A stretch of DNA of 10,367 nucleotides, from the UHGV virus genome UHGV-1709880; one strand, 5' to 3'. This DNA is from a virus. A program made the translations under genes and the position numbers. The notes below the pieces were generated by a model. That model had not been told where the DNA came from. It searched no databases and worked only from the letters and a program-made list of their open reading frames with translations. Shown in pieces: positions 1-10,272 of the stretch (the stretch's first letter is position 1; every line of letters starts with the position of its first letter).

Positions 1-210
1 ACAACGCGCGGCGCTCTTTACTCGTTCGTCTACAACGTGGGTGCTGGCAATTTCAGAACATCGACGCTTCTTCGCAAAATAAACCAGGGTGATATTAAAG
101 GCGCATGTGATCAGCTACGGCGCTGGACATACGCTGGCGGTAATCAATGGAAAGGACTGATGACTCGCCGTGAGATTGAGCGTGAAGTCTGTTTGTGGGG
201 GAAACAATGA
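1..210 (+). CDS. 19: Endolysin, phage lysozyme (GH24, T4 e / P22 gp19 type); 5'-truncated by the window edge, C-terminal ~69 aa present
   Basis: Frame 1 is open from position 1 to TGA at 208-210 and translates to ...[63 protein letters not shown], which I recognise as the conserved C-terminus of P22-type lysozyme. The stop overlaps the downstream Rz start (ATGA), as is typical of lysis cassettes. Confidence 0.85.
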
Positions 211-665
211 GCAGAGTAACCGCGATTATCTCCGCTCTGGTTATCTGCATCATCGTCTGCCTGTCATTGGCTGTTAATCATTACCGTGATAACGCAATCG
301 CCTACAAAGAGCAGCGCGATAACAAGGCCAGTGAACTGGAGAAGGCGAACGCCACCATCGCTGACATGCGGAAGCGTCAACGTGATGTAGCAGAACTCGA
401 CGCAAGATACACAAAGGAGCTTGCTGATGCTAACGCGACTATCGAAAGTCTCCGTGCTGATGTTTCTGCTGGGCGTAAGCGCCTGCAAGTCGCCGCCACC
501 TGTGCAAAGTCAACGACCGGAGCCAGCGGCATGGGCGATGGAGAAAGCCCAAGACTTACAGCAGATGCTGAACTCAATTATTACCGTCTCCGAAGTGGAA
601 TCGACAGAATAACCGCGCAGGTTAACTACCTGCAGGAATACATCAGGACGCAATGCCTTCGATGA
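207..665 (+). CDS. rz: Rz i-spanin (inner-membrane spanin subunit), 152 aa
   Basis: ATG at 207 gives [93 protein letters not shown]...: an N-terminal transmembrane helix followed by a coiled-coil periplasmic domain, closely resembling lambda/P22 Rz. The ORF track begins at GTG 195, but the ATG at 207 matches the family N-terminus (MSRVTAI...). Confidence 0.9.
427..612 (+). CDS. rz1: Rz1 o-spanin (outer-membrane lipoprotein spanin subunit), embedded in the +1 frame of rz
   Basis: A strong RBS (AAGGAG at 414-419) sits 7 nt before ATG 427. Translation [46 protein letters not shown]... has a lipoprotein signal with lipobox VSAC and a proline-rich mature region, the hallmark of Rz1. It lies entirely inside rz in a different frame, the classic embedded spanin architecture. 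Confidence 0.8.
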
Positions 666-839
666 TAGCGATAATTTTACTCATCATCCTTCACATCTGG
701 CTCTGTAGACAGGGTGGTGATCACTTCTGGAGTGAATCCAGATTAAACATCTCATTGCTGATGCTTGATATTGAGCATCTGGCGCGCAGTAAGGGGCTGC
801 GTTGAGATAAGAGCCAGTTCATTACAAATACCAGGATTT

Positions 840-864
840 AGCCTCGCATTCGCGGGGCTTTTTA
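840..864 (+). terminator. Candidate intrinsic terminator in the rz-rha intergenic region
   Basis: GC-rich hairpin GCCTCGC (841-847) / GCGGGGC (852-858) with loop ATTC and one G-U wobble, followed by TTTTT (859-863). Confidence 0.45.
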
Positions 865-873
865 TATCTGAAT

Positions 874-901
874 TTCACAGCGCATCTCACGCGCATATTA
901 A
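874..901 (+). promoter_or_regulatory. Possible sigma70-like promoter for the rha transcript
   Basis: TTCACA (874-879), 16-bp spacer, TATTAA (896-901). It lies just downstream of the candidate terminator and about 105 bp upstream of the rha ATG. Weak match to consensus; by eye only. Confidence 0.2.
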
Positions 902-1007
902 CGAGAGCCTTTCAGTAAGCGAGCCTGAGAAATGCCGTTATAGGTGGCGACCTCTCTCGGGCGGCTTTTCTGTGAGACAGGCTCACTTTCTAAAAGGTAA
1001 AGACGCT

Positions 1008-1532
1008 ATGAATAATCATTCAGTTATTCCAGCCTTCGACTTCCGAGAAATGGTGCAAGCCAAAAACGGAGAGGTCGTTACCACATCCAGAAAAATTGCC
1101 AAGTACTTCGGCAAGCGACACGGTGATGTTCTCAGGAAAATCGAGCAGGTTAAGGCTGATTGCTCGCGTGAGTTTAGCCAACGCAATTTTGCGTCGGCTG
1201 ATTATATCGATGAGCAGGGCAAGGTTCGCCCGATGTACAGCCTGACGAAAGATGGCTGGATCATGGTTGTGATGGGGTTCACCGGGAAAGCTGCTGCGGC
1301 AATCAAGGAGAGCTATATCGCAGCATTCAACTGGATGGCAGAGCAACTGAGCCGCCGCATGGCAATTGGCGAAGAAATGCAGCACCGCTACGCCATCAAA
1401 GAAACACGCTCAAAGCTGAAAGGTACGATCGGCAGTCGGTTAATGAACGAACGGAAGAAAGAGAAGCGTGTCCTGGCTGTCGAGCATGAATACATCTTGC
1501 AGGTGACGCAGCCCGAATTGCTGATTAATTGA
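1008..1532 (+). CDS. rha: Rha-family phage regulatory protein (Phage_pRha-like N-terminal domain), 174 aa
   Basis: First ATG in the open frame, preceded by AAAAGG. Translation MNNHSVIPAFDFREMVQAKNGEVVTTSRKIAKYFGKRHGDVLRKIEQVKADCSREFSQRNFASADYIDEQGKVRPMYSLTKDGWIMVVMGF... carries the characteristic Rha motif (TSR.IA..FGKRH.DVLR.I). Its position between lysis and terminase genes matches the rha slot (orf201) of P22-like phages. The upstream extension of the ORF (765-1007) has no ATG and contains the terminator hairpin. Confidence 0.75.
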   Translation: MNNHSVIPAFDFREMVQAKNGEVVTTSRKIAKYFGKRHGDVLRKIEQVKADCSREFSQRNFASADYIDEQGKVRPMYSLTKDGWIMVVMGFTGKAAAAIKESYIAAFNWMAEQLSRRMAIGEEMQHRYAIKETRSKLKGTIGSRLMNERKKEKRVLAVEHEYILQVTQPELLIN

Positions 1533-1545
1533 AGATGCCATCACA

Positions 1546-1567
1546 AAGCCCATCTACGGGTGGGCTT
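1546..1567 (+). other. Stem-loop immediately after the rha stop (possible terminator or RNA-stability element, no U-tract)
   Basis: AAGCCCA (1546-1552) / TGGGCTT (1561-1567), 8-nt loop, followed by GATAATG. Same architecture as the hairpin at 2143-2168. Confidence 0.3.
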
Positions 1568-1762
1568 GATAATGAAACCGGAATTTATTCTGGGCAACCA
1601 GTTACGGCAGTACAGCGAAACAACCCAAGCCAGTAAGTGGGGAAATAACACTGTCAGCCACTGAAAGATGAACCTCCAGCCTTATGGCAAAAAAGATTCT
1701 TTGTGGTGGCGGACTGATGGAAAGACATCCTAATCAAGCAACCACTCTACAGGGTCATAATT

Positions 1763-2134
1763 ATGAACGACCAGCAAATCGAAAAAGAAATCGTTGAGAA
1801 AGGCAAAACGGCACCGCGAGTTACGCCAGACCATATCGAAGGAATTATTGCTCAGGAGGCATATTTCACAGCAGAGGATGGTGCCTTTGGCAAAGCCATA
1901 AAAGAGAAACATACTGGCGGAGAGGTAAACTACCAGCCGCACGAATCACTTTCTCTGCTGACGTTCTGCGTCCTGGTGCTGCGCAACGGCTTCACCGTCA
2001 CCGGAGAGAGTGCCTGTGCAAGTCCGGAAAATTTTGATGCAGAAATTGGTCGGAAGATTGCCCGGCAGAATGCTGTAAACAAAATCTGGATGCTCGAAGG
2101 TTACTTGCTGAAGCAGAAGCTAAGCGAACAGTAG
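1763..2134 (+). CDS. Hypothetical phage protein, 123 aa; possibly Gp49/Sf6-Gp66-like family (unverified)
   Basis: ATG 1763 with AGGG about 9 nt upstream. Translation MNDQQIEKEIVEKGKTAPRVTPDHIEGIIAQEAYFTAEDGAFGKAIKEKHTGGEVNYQPHESLSLLTFCVLVLRNGFTVTGESACASPENFDAEIGRKIARQNAVNKIWMLEGYLLKQKLSEQ. Same strand and operon context as the flanking phage genes. The family assignment is from memory of small phage proteins found between lysis and terminase genes, not from a search. Confidence 0.6.
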   Translation: MNDQQIEKEIVEKGKTAPRVTPDHIEGIIAQEAYFTAEDGAFGKAIKEKHTGGEVNYQPHESLSLLTFCVLVLRNGFTVTGESACASPENFDAEIGRKIARQNAVNKIWMLEGYLLKQKLSEQ

Positions 2135-2142
2135 TTATTACA

Positions 2143-2168
2143 AAAGCCATTCCTTACTGAGTGGCTTT
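2143..2168 (+). other. Stem-loop immediately after the 123-aa ORF stop (second copy of the hairpin + GATAATG motif)
   Basis: AAAGCCA (2143-2149) / TGGCTTT (2162-2168), 12-nt loop, followed by GATAATGG (2169-2176). Confidence 0.3.
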
Positions 2169-2190
2169 GATAATGGCTTATACCCTACAC

Positions 2191-2216
2191 GGGATAACTT
2201 AACTGATATCCCTTTT
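2191..2216 (+). terminator. Weak terminator-like hairpin upstream of the 80-aa ORF
   Basis: GGGATA (2191-2196) / TATCCC (2207-2212), 10-nt loop, then TTTT (2213-2216). Confidence 0.25.
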
Positions 2217-2237
2217 AACGGATAAACGGAGCCAACA

Positions 2238-2480
2238 ATGGCAGAGATTATTCCCATGACTGAAGAACAGAAATTCCAGTTAGAGATTTACAAGCTGGTC
2301 ATGAACCAGAACGCAGCCGCAGAAGAAGCATTTCAGTTCATTGGTACTGACGAGCTGAAGCTTGAGCTATTCAAAATTCACTTCCAGTCAGGCGGCGCTA
2401 ATTCAGATATCACGACCCGCACTATCGAAGCGGTGCGTAAATCGAAGGAAGCGTTAGACCTGTTCACCGCTGGAGTGTGA
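2238..2480 (+). CDS. Hypothetical small acidic protein, 80 aa (size and position resemble orf80 of P22-like phages)
   Basis: ATG 2238 with GGAG about 8 nt upstream. Translation MAEIIPMTEEQKFQLEIYKLVMNQNAAAEEAFQFIGTDELKLELFKIHFQSGGANSDITTRTIEAVRKSKEALDLFTAGV. Stop TGA at 2478-2480 is 1 nt from the next ATG (2482), implying translational coupling. Confidence 0.6.
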   Translation: MAEIIPMTEEQKFQLEIYKLVMNQNAAAEEAFQFIGTDELKLELFKIHFQSGGANSDITTRTIEAVRKSKEALDLFTAGV

Positions 2481-2481
2481 T

Positions 2482-2871
2482 ATGGCTAAGGCCAAATGGC
2501 ACAAACTCCCGGCGTTCACCATTCCGCTGTTTCAAAGTGCACACGTCTACCTCGCAACAACCAGAGAACAGTTTCAGCACGCTGATAAATTCCTTGGCGG
2601 CAGCGGGGATGAGAAGCCATTCAATCTTGGGCTTGCAAGCAGCTATGAAAACACTGATACGGGTGAGCGATGCTATCTGATTGGAGTATTCGATCAGCAG
2701 ATCGCTACGCTCGTTCATGAGTGCGCCCACGTCTGCTTTTACGTTTGCTCTGATGTCGGCGTGACGACAAGGCCTGAAGATGCCAACGAGACGTACTGTT
2801 ACATGCTGGACAGGATGGTTAATCACTTCCTGCCATTCATTCAGGAGAAACAAGATGCATCACTGGAATAA
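2482..2871 (+). CDS. Hypothetical protein with HExxH motif (possible zinc metallopeptidase-like fold), 129 aa
   Basis: ATG 2482 with GGAG upstream, coupled to the preceding ORF. Translation MAKAKWHKLPAFTIPLFQSAHVYLATTREQFQHADKFLGGSGDEKPFNLGLASSYENTDTGERCYLIGVFDQQIATLVHECAHVCFYVCSDVGVTTRPEDANETYCYMLDRMVNHFLPFIQEKQDASLE. HECAH is at residues 79-83 (nt 2716-2730). The equal-length antisense ORF 2464..2853 has no RBS and no operon logic, so I call the + strand. Confidence 0.6.
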   Translation: MAKAKWHKLPAFTIPLFQSAHVYLATTREQFQHADKFLGGSGDEKPFNLGLASSYENTDTGERCYLIGVFDQQIATLVHECAHVCFYVCSDVGVTTRPEDANETYCYMLDRMVNHFLPFIQEKQDASLE

Positions 2872-3049
2872 TCAATCCCCTTATTGCCAATGCCAACGCT
2901 GCCCGTGCTGCGGGAAGATTGTTAACCAATTTACTGGCAACAATTTCTTCAAGACTGGTTATGGATATGGTGTTGCGGGTAGCATTAATTGCTCTGGGGC
3001 TGCTGCTGAAACGACATCAAACACAGGCAAGCAGGAAGGAGCTAAGTAA
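2855..3049 (+). CDS. Candidate Cys-rich micro-protein, 64 aa (possible zinc-ribbon); uncertain
   Basis: Strong RBS CAGGAGAAACAAG immediately before ATG 2855. Translation MHHWNNQSPYCQCQRCPCCGKIVNQFTGNNFFKTGYGYGVAGSINCSGAAAETTSNTGKQEGAK has two closely spaced Cys pairs (C..C x2 C.CC). Overlaps the 3' end of the HExxH ORF by 17 nt. An alternative hydrophobic ORF 2919..3110 in another frame cannot be excluded. Confidence 0.3.
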   Translation: MHHWNNQSPYCQCQRCPCCGKIVNQFTGNNFFKTGYGYGVAGSINCSGAAAETTSNTGKQEGAK

Positions 3050-3143
3050 TGGTAATCAACGTTTGTTCAGGCTCTCAGGGCTTCGACAACCCATCCAAAT
3101 TCCGCGATGAATGGGATAAGCAAGCAGAAGGGAAATAATCAAT

Positions 3144-3632
3144 ATGGCAGCACCAAAGGGCAACCGATTTTGGGAGGCCCGCAGTAGTCATGGGCGAAAT
3201 CCTAAATTCGAATCGCCTGAGGCGCTGTGGGCTGCTTGTTGTGAATACTTCGAGTGGGCTGATGATAACCCGTTATGGGAGGGTAAGGTATTTTCATATC
3301 AGGGAGAAATAATTAAGGCTAATGTCCCTAAGATGCGAGCCATGACTATTTCAGGATTGTGTACCTTCCTTGATATCACCAGGCAAACATGGGGAACCTT
3401 CCGGTCAATGGAAGGTTTTTCTGACGTCACATCACGAGCGGAAGACATCATCTACGACCAGAAATTCTCTGGCGCAGCCGCTGACCTTCTCAACGCTAAC
3501 ATCATCGCCCGTGATTTGGGCCTCAAAGAGCAGTCGCAAGTTGAAGACGTGACACCTGATAAGGGAGATCGCGATAAGCGACGCTCTCGTATCAAGGAGC
3601 TATTCAACCGTGGAACTGGACGCGATTCTTGA
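3144..3632 (+). CDS. 3: Terminase small subunit (TerS), P22 gp3-like, 162 aa
   Basis: ATG 3144, RBS GAAGGG upstream. Translation [38 protein letters not shown]...[49 protein letters not shown]. Recognised as the P22-type small terminase by length, termini and position immediately upstream of the large terminase. Confidence 0.88.
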
Positions 3633-5109
3633 TAACCTGAGCGACGAAGAGCAAATCGAATTGCTCGAGCTACTCGAAGAAGAAGAAAACTACCGGAACA
3701 CACACCTGCTATATGAATTTACGCCATACAGCAAACAGCGTGAGTTCATCGACGCCGGGCATGACTATCCAGAGCGATGTTTTATGGCTGGTAACCAGCT
3801 TGGTAAGTCATTTACTGGTGCTGCTGAAGTCGCGTTTCACCTTACCGGGCGTTATCCGGGCACAAAAGGCTATCCTGCTGATGGTAAATATGGCGGTGAG
3901 TGGAAAGGTAAGCGTTTCTATGAGCCTGTTGTCTTCTGGATTGGCGGCGAGACAAACGAGACTGTAACCAAAACGACTCAACGCATCCTGTGCGGTCGTA
4001 TCGAAGAGAATGATGAACCTGGCTACGGTTCCATACCGAAAGAAGACATCATTAGCTGGAAGAAGTCTCCTTTCTTTCCGAACCTTGTTGATCATCTTCT
4101 GGTTAAGCATCACACGGCTGATGGCGTTGAAGATGGCATTTCAATCTGCTACTTCAAGCCATACTCGCAAGGCCGTGCTCGCTGGCAGGGTGACACAATC
4201 CACGGCGTGTGGTTTGACGAAGAGCCACCATACAGCATTTATGGTGAAGGTCTTACACGTACCAACAAATACGGGCAATTCTCAATTCTGACGTTTACCC
4301 CGCTGATGGGGATGTCTGACGTTGTTACCAAGTTCCTGAAGAATCCCAGCAAGTCGCAGAAAGTGGTCAACATGACCATCTATGACGCTGAGCACTACAC
4401 CGACGAGCAGAAAGAGCAAATCATCGCATCCTATCCTGAGCATGAGAGAGAGGCGCGTGCTCGCGGTATTCCTACGATGGGTAGCGGGAGAATCTTCCAG
4501 ATACCGGAAGAGACGATTAAGTGTCAGCCGTTCGAGTGCCCTGATCACTTCTACGTAATTGGCGGGATGGATTTCGGATGGGATCACCCACAGGCGCAGG
4601 TTCAGCTTTGGTGGGATAAGGACGCAGACACAATCTACGTTTCACGCGTGTGGAAGGCGAAAGAAAAAACAGCCGTTCAGGCATGGGGAGCCGTTAAATC
4701 ATGGGCGCATAAAGTGCCAACCGCATGGCCTCATGACGGAAACCAGCATGAGAAGGGCGGCGGTGAGCAGCTCAAAGGGCAGTATGCCGACGCTGGTTTT
4801 ATGATGTTGCAGGAGCATGCGACATGGCCTGATGGCGGTAACGCTGTTGAGCCTGGCATCACTGAATTGCGAGACATGATGCTCGACGGTCGCTTCAAAG
4901 TATTCAACACCTGTGAGCCATTCTTTGAGGAGTTCCGCCTCTATCACCGTGATGAAAACGGGAAAATCGTCAAGCTTAACGACGACGTGCTATCCGCCGT
5001 TCGCTATGCATACATGATGCGCCGCTTCGCAAAAATGATGCGCGACATCAAAAAGCCAAAAGAGAAAAAGATACCAGCCCCAATCAGGCCCATCGCACGG
5101 AGAACTTAA
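3610..5109 (+). CDS. 2: Terminase large subunit (TerL; ATPase/nuclease), P22 gp2-like, 499 aa
   Basis: GTG start at 3610 (AAGGAG at 3592-3597), overlapping the terS 3' end by 23 nt. Translation [37 protein letters not shown]...[16 protein letters not shown] (Walker A-like GKS) ... VWFDEEPP (Walker B-like DEE) ... C-terminal nuclease region. Size and sequence match P22 gp2. Confidence 0.95.
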
Positions 5110-7275
5110 ATGGCCGACGAAAACAGACTCAATTCCATTCTGTGTAAGTTTGACGCAGACTGGATGGCGAGCGATGAAGCCAGAACCGAGGCGACAAATG
5201 ACCTGTATTTTAGCCGAGTGTCGCAATGGGATGACTGGCTATCAAACTACACCACCCTGCAATATCGCGGACAATTCGATGTTGTCCGCCCGGTGGTCAG
5301 GAAGTTGGTCGCAGAGATGCGCCGGAACCCTATCGACGTTCTCTTCCGACCAAAAGACGGTGCTAATCCTGATGCAGCCGATGTGTTGATGGGGATGTAT
5401 CGTACTGATATGCGCCATAACACGGCAAAAATTGCCGTTAACATTGGCGTTCGTGAGCAGATAGAGTCCGGCGTTGGTGCATGGCGTCTGGTCACGCAGT
5501 ACGAAGACAACGATCCAACAAGCAACAATCAGGTAATTCGACGCCTGCCAATTCATGAAGCCTGCTCACACGTCATATGGGACGCCAACAGCAAGCAGAT
5601 GGATAAGAGCGACGCTAAGCACTGCACGGTGATTAACGCCTTGTCGCGCAATGGCTGGAAAGAGTTTGCAGAGGATTACGGTATTGATCCGGACACCTTG
5701 CCATCTTTCCAGAATCCGAACGATACATGGCTGTTTCCGTGGGTATCGAATGATGTCGTCTACGTCGCTGAGTATTACGAGGTCGAAGAGAAGAAAGAGA
5801 AAGTCTTCATCTACCGCGACCCGCTGACAGGTGAGCCGGTAAGCTATTACCAGCAGGATATCAAAGACGTCATCGACGACCTGGCTAATCGTGGATTCAT
5901 TAAGGTAGCAGAGCGCAAGGTGAAGCGTCGGCGTGTGTATAAGTCGATCATCACCTGTACGCAGATACTGAAAGACCGCGAGAAGATAGCCGGAGAGCAT
6001 ATTCCAATCGTTCCAGTGTATGGTGAATGGTCATTCGCTGGTGACAAGGAGTGCTACGAAGGAGTGGTAAGGCTGACGAAAGACGGTCAACGCCTTCGTA
6101 ACATGATCATGTCGTTCAACGCCGATATTGTTGCTCGTTCACCGAAGAAGAAACCGACCTTCTTCCCTGAGCAAATCGAAGGCTACGAATACATGTACGG
6201 TGGAAATGATGACTATCCGTACTATCTGCAGAACAGGACCGATGAAAACGGTAACGACCTGCCGATTGGTCCAATCTCCTACATGGAAAACCCTGAAGTG
6301 CCGCAAGCCAACGCTTACATGCTTGAGGCTGCCACCAACGCAGTGAAAGAGGTGGCTAGTCTTGGCGTGGATGCGCAGGCAGCAAACTCTCAGGTCGCTT
6401 TCGATACTGTCAATCAACTGAACATGCGAGCAGACCTTGAGACATATGTGTTTCAGGATAACCTGGCTACCGCAATGCGACGTGATGGCGAGATTTATGC
6501 CTCAATGGTCAACGATATTTATGACGTTCCTCGTCATGTAACGCTGACACTTGAAGATGGTAGCGAGAAAGACGTTCAACTCTACGCGCAAGTTGTCGAT
6601 TACCAGTCCGGTAATGTGGTCACACTCAACGACATTCGCGGTCGCTATGAGTGCTATACAGACGTTGGACCATCCTTCCAGAGTATGAAGGAACAGAACC
6701 GCGCAGAGATTCAGGAGTTACTCACCAAGGTTCCACAAGGTACTCCAGAGTTCCAGATGCTGATGCTGCAATACTTCACGCTGCTTGATGGTAAAGGCGT
6801 CGAGATGATGCGAGAGTACGCGAACAAGCAACTGGTGATGATGGGGCTGAAGAAACCAGAAACACCTGAAGAGATGGAGATGGTACAGCAGGCTCAACAG
6901 CAGCCGCAGCAGCCATCAGCAGAGCAAATTCAGGCGCAGGGTATCCTTCTGCAAGGTCAGGCTGAATTGCTCAAGGCAGAGAACCAACAGGCGCAGATTC
7001 AGGTTGAAGCCGCCAAGGTTGAAGCCCAAAACCAACTCAACGCCGCGAAGATTGCGGAAATCTTCAACAATATGGACCTCGACAAGCAGGCAGAACTGCG
7101 TGAGTACCTCAAGCTCGTAGGTCAATTCCAGCAACAGCGCAGCAAAGATGCTCGTGCTAACGCTGAGCTGCTTCTTAAAGATGCAGACCAGACTCATTCA
7201 CAACGCATGGATTTCGCGAATCTTATGCGTCAAGTTCAAATCCCCTCCGGCGGAGTAGCCGAGACACCTCAATAA
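5110..7275 (+). CDS. 1: Portal protein, P22 gp1-like, 721 aa
   Basis: ATG 5110 directly abuts the terL stop (TAAATG). Translation [66 protein letters not shown]... with a long glutamine-rich coiled-coil C-terminal barrel region (...[65 protein letters not shown]...), as in the P22 portal. Confidence 0.95.
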
Positions 7276-8200: not shown

Positions 8201-9495
8201 TGGCATTAAATGAAGGTCAACTGGTCACGTATGCTCTGGATGAAATCATCGAAACCGTCCAGAACCTGACGCCAATGGCGTCCAAAGTGACAAAATACAC
8301 CCCTCCGGCAGAATCCATGCAGCGTTCAAGCAACACCGTGTGGATGCCTGTTGAGCAGGAAGCGCCAACCCAGACTGGCTGGGATTTAACTGGCAAGGCA
8401 ACCGGGATTCTGGAGCTTTCCGTGAAATGCAACATGGGCGATCCGGATAACGATTTCTTCGAGCTTCGTGCAGATGACCTGCGTGATGAGCGTTCTTACC
8501 GTCGCCGCATCCAGGCATCCGCCAAAAAACTGGCGAATAACATTGAGTCAGCGATTGCCAAACAGGCAACTGAAATGGGCTCGCTTGTTGTTCACGATAC
8601 CCGCGCAATTGGTCCATCTACTGGCCTGTCTGGCTGGGATTTTGTGTCTGATGCAGAGCGCCTGATGTTCTCCAGAGAACTCAACCGCGACATGGGCATC
8701 AGTTACTTCCTGAACCCTGACGATTACCGCAAAGCAGGCCGTAACCTGGTAGATGGTGACATCTTCGGTCGCGTTCCTGAAGAAGCGTATCGCAACGGTA
8801 CTATTCAGCGTCAGATTGCTGGCTTTGATGAAATTCTTCGCTCACCGAAACTTCCGGCAGTTACCAAGTCAACCGCTACTGGTGTAACTGTTTCTGGTGC
8901 GCAGAAGTTTAAGCCGCAGGCATACACCCTTGATACCGATGGTAACAAAGAGAACGTCGACAACCGTGTTGCAACGGTGACCGTATCTTCCACCACCGGA
9001 TTTAAGCGCGGCGACAAAATCAGCTTCACTGGTGTGAAATTCCTGTCTCAGATGGCGAAGAACGTGCTGACTGATGATGCTACTTTCTCAATCACCCGTG
9101 TGATCGATGATACTCACATCGAAATCACGCCGAAACCGATTGCACTGGATGACGCTTCACTGACAAAAGAAGAGAAGGCTTACGCTAACGTAAACACATC
9201 TCTTGCTAATACCACTCCGGTAAACGTTCTGAACGTGGCAACAGCCACCGCTAACGTGTTCTGGGCTGATGACTCAATCCGCCTGCTATCTCAGCCGATC
9301 CCGGTAACCCATGAACTGTTTGCTGGCATGAAAACGTCTTCCTTCAGCATTCCTGGTATTGGTGTTAACGGCATCTTCGCAACGCAGGGTGATATCAACA
9401 CTCTGTCTGGTAAGTGCCGTATTGCTGTGTGGTATTCAGCATGTGCTGTACGACCAGAGGCAATTGGTGTTGGTCTGCCTAACCAGACTGCGTGA
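8200..9495 (+). CDS. 5: Major capsid (coat) protein, P22 gp5-like (HK97 fold with insertion domain), 431 aa
   Basis: ATG 8200. Translation [97 protein letters not shown]...[14 protein letters not shown]. Recognised as P22-type coat protein by sequence, length and gene order. Confidence 0.93.
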
Positions 9496-9502
9496 TAACC
9501 AG

Positions 9503-9526
9503 AGGGAGCTTCGGCTCCCTTTTTTA
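9503..9526 (+). terminator. Intrinsic terminator / attenuator immediately downstream of the coat gene
   Basis: Perfect hairpin GGGAGC (9504-9509) - UUCG tetraloop - GCUCCC (9514-9519), followed by TTTTTT (9520-9525); begins 8 nt after the coat stop. Confidence 0.7.
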
Positions 9527-9539
9527 TCTGGAGACAAAC

Positions 9540-9771
<232 letters not shown>

Positions 9772-9794
<23 letters not shown>

Positions 9795-10272
9795 TTTAGT
9801 TCTTGCGGCATTACGTAAGCTCGGCGTGGCATCAAATGCCACGTTAACCGATGTCGAACCGCAGTCTATGGAAGACGGCATCAACGACCTTGAAATGATG
9901 ATGGCTGAATGGCTTGGCGGTGATGCGTCACCTGGTATCAACGTTGGCTACATTTTTGCTGATGCAGATGTTGCTCCGGATCCGGGCGATGAGCACGGTT
10001 TATCAAATAACGCTATCAATGCCGTCATTTTCAACCTTGCCTGCCGCATTGCTCCGGATTATGCGCTGGAAGCGTCAGCAAAACTTATAACTACTGCCAG
10101 ATACGGGAAAGAGCGACTCGTCAAACTGTCTGCAATGGACAGAGCAAAAGCCGCTAAATGTAAGTCCGGTTATCCAAACCGTATGCCTGTTGGTAGCGGT
10201 AACCAGTTGGCGAAGTGGAATGGTTGGAATTACTTCCACCGAAAGGAACCTTGCGATAACGGGAGCGAATAA
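9772..10272 (+). CDS. 4: Tail adaptor / head-completion protein, P22 gp4-like, 166 aa
   Basis: ATG 9772. Translation [50 protein letters not shown]...[53 protein letters not shown]... matches the gp4 N-terminus and length. The ORF track's longer version from ATG 9679 reads through the repeat as SQSQSQ and is not supported. Confidence 0.85.

Follow-up and report, generated by a model that had tools for sequence, protein, structure and literature searches.

The window analysed here is the whole of the 10,367 nucleotides taken from UHGV virus genome UHGV-1709880. It is the late region of a P22-like phage of Escherichia coli; IME10, HZ41 and APC_JM3.2 are 97% identical to it over 81–82% of its length. 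The genes run from the end of the lysozyme gene through Rz with Rz1, an accessory stretch, a gp3-type small terminase, the large terminase, portal and scaffold to the coat gene. The accessory stretch is the subject of this work, in particular a gene within it that encodes a member of the Acb4 family of anti-defence proteins. Its fixed flank on the left is the Rz i-spanin gene (195–665; PF03245, E = 1.5e-40; phrog_13), whose product is 84–91% identical to the Rz proteins of P22, Sf6 and g341c and within which lies the lipoprotein open reading frame (ORF) of the Rz1 o-spanin (421–612). Its fixed flank on the right is the P22-type small terminase gene (3144–3632; PF16677, E = 8e-31; phrog_606, E = 4e-71). 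The genes and hairpins of the segment and of its two flanks are on the plus strand. A first-pass annotation had delimited an accessory segment at 665–3143, and this is exactly the gap from the Rz stop (665) to the gp3 start (3144). The same annotation counted five genes in the segment. All five of the plus-strand ORFs that it named exist; however, five is an undercount, since two further conserved small ORFs of 50 amino acids (653–805) and 29 amino acids (3049–3138) had been missed and the conserved plus-strand ORFs number at least seven.

The protein of 123 amino acids, ORF123, is encoded at 1763–2134 within a cassette that spans 1730–2134. It matched PF13876 (E = 8e-35) with 119.6 bits against a cut-off of 27, the full model (positions 1–82) being covered. 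A sequence search with ORF123 across the PDB gave 9E4W, an Acb4 structure, as the sole meaningful match (E = 0.006), and a pairwise comparison with the SPO1-type Acb4 protein gave 38% identity over 48 amino acids (E = 7e-9). Membership of the Acb4 family is firm on these sequence comparisons. PF13876, the N4 gp49/Sf6 gp66 family, is the Acb4 family, with 1,331 members (Chang et al., bioRxiv 10.1101/2024.12.30.630793). According to the same work the protein of Bacillus phage SPO1 is a tetrameric sponge for 3'3'-cyclic GMP-AMP (cGAMP) and related signals of the cyclic-oligonucleotide-based antiphage signalling system (CBASS), cGAMP was bound by eight out of eight homologs assayed, and homologs from phages of Gram-negative hosts also bound 3'3'-cyclic di-AMP (c-di-AMP). 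Table S3 of Chang et al. lists Sf6 gp66 together with E. coli proteins about one residue removed from ORF123. One of these entries, A0A1S0WTM9, is ∼99% identical and differs at one position over the part compared, and ten entries have the first 38 residues of ORF123 in common. The first-pass annotation had found no assignable function for any of its four small proteins, and this is no longer so for the protein of 123 amino acids, which belongs to a published family of anti-CBASS sponges. Its suggestion that the cargo could affect host interactions is supported. The label 'anti-CRISPR' on the homolog of ORF123 in Huey comes from automatic annotation and is not evidence of function.

ORF123 and the SPO1 protein share the ENF(D/N)xEIGR core of the family. 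The ligand contacts of the SPO1 protein that were compared are K36, F48, E49, V56, Y57, F62, N63, I66, T70 and K81. The adenine-pocket residues F48, F62 and I66 are identical in ORF123 (F77, F91 and I95), and two further contacts are similar, V56 being replaced by C85 and N63, which makes a backbone contact, by D92. The two proteins differ in length (123 amino acids versus 96), ORF123 having an N-terminal extension as well as an insertion, and they differ in setting, the gene for ORF123 being one of the late genes of a P22-like phage that is temperate. By analogy with the homologs assayed, ORF123 is predicted to form tetramers and to bind ligands within the range reported for the family.

The cassette behaves as a discrete unit. 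The interval 1730–2134 is precisely missing from P22, VCSW5, g341c, ST64T and HK620, and its junctions are identical in carriers and non-carriers. The left junction is a 126-nt non-coding core (1604–1729) common to every P22-like relative compared. It is 95–98% identical in P22, ST64T, g341c, Sf6, HK620, Huey and several E. coli prophages, although the sequences on either side of it vary between them. This near-invariant core contains no conserved ORF, matches nothing in Rfam and has no unusual structure (z = −0.65); it may be a recombination anchor or a cis element of an unrecognised type. Two ORFs in the spacer between rha and the Acb4 gene, of 30 amino acids (1572–1664) and 21 amino acids (1668–1733), were rejected as genes because the N-terminus or the start codon is not conserved. 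The right junction is a hairpin 3' of the Acb4 gene (2143–2168; folding free energy −15.8 kcal/mol, z = −4.4), which has no T-run, is followed by GCTTTGATAATG and is kept in relatives that do not carry the cassette. In P22 the stretch 40407–41013 (L004, 2408–3014), ∼600 bp between orf25 and orf80, has no annotated gene and is the position that the Acb4 cassette takes in other relatives. The cassette was found in 526 of 5426 complete E. coli genomes. Recent preprints describe guard systems, Panoptes and PanDA, that fire once Acb4 removes a decoy signal. Such guards would fit the presence/absence polymorphism of the cassette, a link that we infer.

The segment as a whole is a mosaic. Coverage of 600–3200 stayed below 80% in every phage record and every complete E. 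coli genome, but each block of this interval was found separately at 95–100% identity in different relatives. Rha and the ORF of 50 amino acids are present in W284 and B1.H1.18 at 98–100% protein identity; the Acb4 allele, the DUF2560 gene, a gene for a predicted zincin and the two small ORFs of 64 and 29 amino acids that follow it, ORF64 and ORF29, are present in MLI106K1 at 90–99% protein identity; and VCSW5 shares the block from DUF2560 through gp3. The position of rha is occupied in relatives by a KilA-N gene, a GIY-YIG nuclease gene or nothing. Between the DUF2560 gene and the terminase, P22, HK620 and Sf6 carry orf59c/hkbN and W284 carries an ORF of 23 amino acids alone. The zincin is accompanied there by dec in ST64T, L and g341c, by ORF64 and ORF29 in the window, and by ORFs of 63, 30 and 110 amino acids in the diverged contig L007. 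Eighty zincin-bearing IMG/VR contigs showed 46 patterns of recognised genes, a count that is an upper bound since some loci are cut by contig ends.

The well-studied P22-like phages have the same slot, strand and junctions: P22 with rha-orf25-orf80-orf59c, Sf6 with genes 65–68, HK620 with hkbK-hkbN, and ST64T, L and g341c with orf118 or orf80, orf129 and dec. The gp65-like ORF is common to the window and Sf6, HK620 and g341c, and the zincin is common to the window and ST64T, L and g341c. The window differs from these phages in that its Rha is the E. coli allele, its Acb4 allele is 75% identical to Sf6 gp66, and the zincin with ORF64 and ORF29 takes the place of orf59c/hkbN or dec. This combination is found in none of these named phages. 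It is present in one IMG/VR contig (IMGVR_UViG_3300045988_027612, L018), which has the same seven-gene order and is 99.5% identical over 207–6368 of the window. As the first-pass annotation expected, the stretch from Rz/Rz1 to the small terminase varies among P22-like phages, reference phages and E. coli prophages carrying differing subsets of genes. The annotation had also raised the possibility that the whole order, with functions assigned, already existed in known phages. The order does recur, as Rha-Gp49-DUF2560 in W284, B1.H1.18 and phiv205-1 with proteins 75–100% identical and in full in L018, but a function has been assigned to one small protein only.

Short sequences recur at the joints of this mosaic. 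The motif GCTTGATAATG, which follows the hairpin 3' of rha, is repeated 3' of the next hairpin (repeat D6), and GCTT(T)GATAATG follows two hairpins. A second pattern, GCAAGCAG..GG.A..TAAT..ATG, is present at both the ORF64/ORF29 and ORF29/gp3 boundaries and again at the orf129/dec junction of ST64T. Recurring junctions are the pattern expected for recombination exchange at short conserved linkers. The last 24 nt of ORF64 (3027–3050) and of ORF29 (3120–3143) form direct repeats, 75% identical, each with the next start codon at its end; the orf129/dec junction of ST64T (L005, 2876–2896) has the same sequence, which suggests reuse of a linker in cassette exchange.

To the right of the Acb4 cassette the genes are tightly packed. 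Gaps along the run from ORF80 through ORF129, ORF64 and ORF29 to gp3 are 1, −17, −1 and 5 nt, and each member of the run has a GGAG-type Shine-Dalgarno sequence within the preceding gene. The first-pass annotation had called two genes translationally coupled, but two is too few for a run in which all members are this closely spaced. The first gene of the run, ORF80 (2238–2480), encodes the 80-amino-acid DUF2560 protein known as P22 orf80, Sf6 gp67 and HK620 hkbM (PF10834, E = 1e-43, 147.7 bits against a cut-off of 25). It is a small four-helix protein, 97–100% identical to its counterparts in P22, Sf6, HK620 and g341c, and it gave no informative structural match. The idea that DUF2560 might be a Sequestin was rejected: three DUF2560 alleles gave no match to Sequestin (PF21825) at E ≤ 10, in a search where an Acb4 fusion protein from phage phCDa matched at E = 2e-13, and hhalign gave a probability of 0.2% against the Sequestin domain of that protein. 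The phCDa protein, gp01 of an N4-like Pseudomonas phage (L008, 608–1159), is a fusion of Acb4 (PF13876) to Sequestin that is annotated as hypothetical.

The next gene, ORF129 (2482–2871; phrog_1365, E = 2e-37), encodes a protein of 129 amino acids that is 60% identical to ST64T orf-129, phage L Orf129 and g341c gp66. Five positions alone, G50, H79, E80, H83 and E103, are invariant across 58 close homologs and 74 distant ones (24–50% identity), and they include an HExxH motif and a glutamate 20 residues past H83. An AlphaFold2 model (predicted local distance difference test score 86, predicted template modelling score 0.81) has a four-stranded sheet, a backing helix and an active-site helix (74–91) that carries HExxH. 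In this model E103 is the first residue of a helix (103–128), and it would be a zinc ligand. The spacing, and an 'NE' motif, are presumably thermolysin-like. A HMMER scan of 1.84 billion representatives (a 50%-identity library) returned 827 clusters of the family at E ≤ 1e-3, nearly all of 110–140 amino acids. Among the viral models of BFVD, Foldseek returned numerous neighbours encoded by phages of the N4-like, crAss-like, Ralstonia and Erwinia kinds; SprT-like, Metalloprotease and IrrE are among the names that these neighbours carry. A profile search gave a weak match to myroilysin (E = 0.04). The ratio of non-synonymous to synonymous substitution rates (dN/dS) of the gene is 0.03. Described minimal zincins (SprT-like PF10263, minigluzincins and polyvalent/ArdC-type metallopeptidase domains) share with ORF129 the HExxH helix and downstream glutamate, the order of elements (β-sheet, backing helix, active-site helix) and a size of ∼120–130 amino acids, but ORF129 has no zinc-ribbon or DNA-binding extension. 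The invariant residues mark it as a predicted minimal gluzincin outside the described families, and it would act as a protease.

Several other identities were considered and rejected. The protein is not Acb5, whose defining features are W38, R10 and H61 together with a pocket formed by a tetramer, and not HExxH. The NCBIfam aKG-HExxH hydroxylase model reached 18 bits against a cut-off of 40 and covered the motif only. Kinship to PF18894 (PhageMetallopep), encoded by an adjoining gene in L031, was dismissed at an hhalign probability of 1.2% with an alignment around HExxH only. P22 orf59c and HK620 hkbN are not shortened zincins but belong to an unrelated family, phrog_3546, and no homolog of ORF129 was found adjacent to Acb4 in N4-like phCDa, of which 3.4 kb was covered. 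In the lambdoid viral contigs L031 (3036–5025) and L037 (3486–4879) the zincin gene is directly 5' of small terminases of Terminase_2 or DUF2280 type. The order in L031 is Acb4, zincin and then the PF18894 'putative phage metallopeptidase'.

The two smallest frames follow. ORF64 (2855–3049) encodes 64 amino acids with a cysteine-rich motif, CxCQRCPCCGK, belongs to no family and shares its first 17 nt with the end of the zincin gene; AGGAG lies 7 nt 5' of its ATG. ORF29 (3049–3138) begins in the ORF64 stop (TAATG) and ends 5 nt before gp3. Neither is called by the Prokaryotic Genome Annotation Pipeline (PGAP) in E. coli prophages that carry DNA 98–99.7% identical. Coding was tested by comparison with the diverged contig L007, at ∼80% DNA identity. 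Both frames are open there, whereas an alternative frame of 63 amino acids (2919–3110) is stopped. The indels are of 6 and 3 nt only, and differences at the first, second and third codon positions number 12, 11 and 20 for ORF64 and 5, 2 and 10 for ORF29. The dN/dS of ORF64 is 0.35 overall and 0.13 in the cysteine-rich first 29 codons, and that of ORF29 is 0.18. Homologs of ORF64 were found in 18 other loci and occurred 15 times in the 80 IMG/VR loci; the cysteine motif, also present in L007, is all that the most diverged copy (L058) keeps. The C-terminal region of ORF29 is conserved and ends in (A/T)EG, and versions of 23–25 amino acids are found directly 5' of the small terminase gene (terS), of P22 type in W284 and of Sf6 type in B1.H1.18. 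On this pattern of change both frames are probably coding, and since they are regarded as such the segment has at least seven genes. An ORF of the ORF29 type could encode a micro-protein or be a translational-coupling leader for terS.

Other observations concern the same interval. ORFs of 23–30 amino acids ending in (A/T)EG(D)K stand before terS in the window (3049–3138), in L012 (3364–3435) and in L007 (1579–1671), although in L007 an ORF of 110 amino acids separates it from the terminase. Database variants of 2855–3138 include an in-frame fusion of ORF64 to ORF29 of 89 amino acids (P0215), and other variants of ORF64 are frameshifted (P0218) or truncated (P0216). The interval 2872–3143 was also considered as a decayed dec gene and this was rejected, there being no similarity except a 21-nt match at the junction.

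The left part of the segment begins with the hydrophobic ORF of 50 amino acids (653–805; phrog_11822, E = 1.4e-37), of the type of Sf6 gene 65 (gp65). It overlaps the end of Rz and lies partly outside the segment as first delimited. It is 94–98% identical in Sf6, HK620, g341c, Huey and W284 and was not found in P22, ST64T, VCSW5 or MLI106K1; the RefSeq records of Sf6, g341c and E. coli W284 annotate it as a coding sequence. It is followed by a hairpin resembling an intrinsic terminator (840–866; −16.5 kcal/mol, z = −3.8), in which an 8-bp stem (840–859) with six GC pairs precedes TTTTT; no other hairpin of the segment has the make-up of a true terminator. Between this element and the start of rha, at 875–896, two copies of an 11-nt sequence (TCACAGCGCATC / TCACGCGCATA) form a direct repeat, to which a regulator might bind within the rha leader of 140 nt. 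The rha gene (1008–1532) encodes a Rha-family protein of 174 amino acids (PF09669, E = 2e-28; TIGR02681, E = 4e-33; phrog_518, E = 4e-78) that scores above both model cut-offs (99.1 bits against 29.9 and 113.8 bits against 45.95). It is 100% identical to WP_001059339.1 of E. coli W284 and B1.H1.18, and 37% identical to P22 Rha. Rha has a DNA-binding domain, and the rha genes of phi80 and P22 inhibit phage growth in hosts deficient in integration host factor (IHF), their expression being described as under IHF control (PMC4936722). An IHF-like site with a mismatch at one position is present at 1014–1026, directly past the rha start codon, but IHF sites around rha were rejected as a signal because chance alone would give 8.5 of them in the window and it contains 6. 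The hairpin 3' of rha (1546–1567; −17.2 kcal/mol, z = −3.3) has no T-run. No known RNA family was found on either strand of 1–3700 (Rfam, E ≤ 1). Elsewhere in the window, directly 3' of the coat gene, there is a perfect hexanucleotide repeat, CAGAGC × 6.7 (9685–9724), which is read as PEPEPE in an ORF at 9492–9794 and as SQSQSQ at the start of an ORF at 9679–10272 and is a potentially slippage-prone tract.

The arrangement bears on how the segment is transcribed. The hairpins noticed between genes in the first-pass annotation are real, three in number, and each folds better than shuffled sequence; a T-run is present on one of them only (840–866), the stable hairpins after rha and the Acb4 gene having none. 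A consensus scan found no sigma-70-like promoter on the plus strand 5' of any ORF of the segment. The sole plus-strand promoter-like site in 1–3700 lies within the Acb4 ORF (1887–1915), and a count of one is what shuffled sequence would give. The description of the segment as morons in the strict sense, each with promoter, gene and terminator, is not supported. As the cassettes run in the same direction as the lysis and head genes, overlap them in part and have no sigma-70-like promoter 5' of them, it appears that they are transcribed with the late operon and are accessory cassettes of that operon.

Taken together, the segment is probably the variable accessory region that, in a P22-like (Lederbergvirus-type) phage of E. 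coli, adjoins the distal end of the lysis cassette; it is made up of single-gene cassettes exchanged by recombination and transcribed late, at least one of which is a counter-defence gene. The late promoter would transcribe the cassettes, an antiterminated polymerase reading through the 840–866 terminator and the two hairpins without T-runs, and the level of the Acb4 homolog would rise late in infection. As a predicted homotetramer ORF123 would sequester CBASS cyclic dinucleotides (3'3'-cGAMP or cyclic UMP-AMP, probably 3'3'-c-di-AMP) and so would keep the CBASS effector from activation. The block of DUF2560, zincin, ORF64 and ORF29 would most plausibly be further host-takeover or counter-defence cargo, in which the zincin may cleave a host protein, possibly an immune one. 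Two things favour this reading, the company of Acb4 and the strong purifying selection on a zincin family that occurs phage-wide. For N4-like phages a hot spot has been proven at the Acb4 locus, and neighbours whose role was formerly unassigned (Bes1 and Bes2) are also anti-defence genes. The anti-signalling hot spot of the N4-like Migulavirinae, represented by Ab09 gp59–61 (Acb4-Sequestin, Bes1 and Bes2), is like the slot in the window a compact variable locus between conserved genes, and in both an Acb4-family gene is flanked by small uncharacterised genes. The two differ in phage group and genomic position, the Acb4 of the window is not fused, and its neighbours DUF2560 and the zincin are unrelated to Sequestin.

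A number of points weigh against this reading. Only 3 of the 10 SPO1 ligand contacts are identical in ORF123; L65 and T78 stand in the places of the guanine-specific residues K36 and E49, Y57, T70 and K81 have become A86, I99 and M110, and ∼30 residues are inserted relative to the SPO1-type protein. The changed contacts fit an altered base specificity such as has been reported for Gram-negative homologs. ORF123 is a predicted sponge whose binding, oligomeric state and role in infection are taken from its family homologs. PADLOC gave no match for any protein of the segment, no Pfam model matches ORF129, and SprT-like PF10263 matches not ORF129 itself but only 2 of its 74 relatives, with a best E of 1e-4. 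The promoter scan was a simple consensus search by which weak or non-sigma-70 promoters would be missed. Acb4 was present in the fetched flank of only 4 of the 80 zincin-bearing loci, so that the zincin block is linked to Acb4 by position, and the link is not an obligate one. The slot is also not reserved for anti-defence genes, since phages L and ST64T carry dec, a structural gene, in the same sub-slot.

A stronger form of the counter-defence reading can be considered, in which the family of ORF129 comprises unrecognised, phage-wide miniature metalloproteases that cleave a host immune or regulatory protein, ORF64 and the peptide of 29 amino acids act as partners, inhibitors or substrates, and the slot is an Acb4-marked anti-defence island in P22-like and other lambdoid phages. 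This is regarded as rather unlikely.

The main rival holds that the right half of the segment, from DUF2560 to ORF29, serves DNA packaging or head morphogenesis and that the zincin processes a virion or packaging protein. The unbroken chain of closely spaced genes from ORF80 into gp3 would suit such a role, as would the position of the zincin gene directly 5' of at least four types of small terminase (P22 gp3, Sf6-type, Terminase_2 and DUF2280). Similarly, ORF29 or its version of 23 amino acids abuts the terS start in several contexts, and dec, which occupies the sub-slot in ST64T, L and g341c, is a capsid decoration gene. However, P22, Sf6, HK620 and W284 make virions without the zincin, ORF64 or Dec, the first three having the unrelated orf59c/hkbN instead and W284 the ORF of 23 amino acids only, and distant homologs of the zincin adjoin arc and the tailspike gene or sit within a lysis cassette. 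Given that relatives lack the block and that homologs occur elsewhere, the function of the zincin block must be dispensable and is not tied to one packaging machine. A role in packaging is judged unlikely.

Less likely still is a role of these genes as classical morons or in lysogenic conversion, with expression from the prophage for the benefit of the lysogen in superinfection exclusion or growth control. Units of a gene plus a hairpin do exist, the hydrophobic ORF of 50 amino acids with its true terminator resembles a small membrane moron, and the cargo is patchily distributed. Against this stand the lack of a sigma-70-like promoter on the plus strand 5' of any ORF and the fact that every gene runs in the direction of the late operon, the ORF of 50 amino acids overlapping Rz and ORF29 abutting gp3. 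Moreover Acb4, the sole protein whose family role is known, acts for the infecting phage and not for the lysogen. That the segment is largely selfish or decaying filler, with non-adaptive micro-ORFs and alternatives at the rha position and with ORF64 and ORF29 untranslated, is hardly credible: the replacement of Rha by a GIY-YIG nuclease, KilA-N or nothing, the silence of PGAP on the two ORFs, the frameshifted and truncated database variants and the duplicated junctions would agree with it, but the purifying selection on the zincin, the conservation of DUF2560, the open frames of ORF64 and ORF29 with indels in multiples of three and third-position-biased change, and the cysteine motif retained in the most diverged ORF64 copy do not.

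The locus thus brings known types of cassette together in a new way, within a region already recognised as variable. It is an ordinary accessory mosaic and, at least in part, an island of counter-defence. P22-like genomes gain a concrete functional reading for a corner long left unannotated, and two kinds of fresh lead come with it, a Pfam-less family of predicted miniature zincins and two micro-genes, unannotated until now, that current pipelines skip. About one-tenth of complete E. coli genomes carry the predicted anti-CBASS sponge cassette as a clean presence/absence polymorphism, and such a polymorphism is expected if the sponge helps against CBASS yet exposes the phage to the guards that sense sponges, Panoptes and PanDA. 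Known principles are unchanged by these results and are extended to a new locus.

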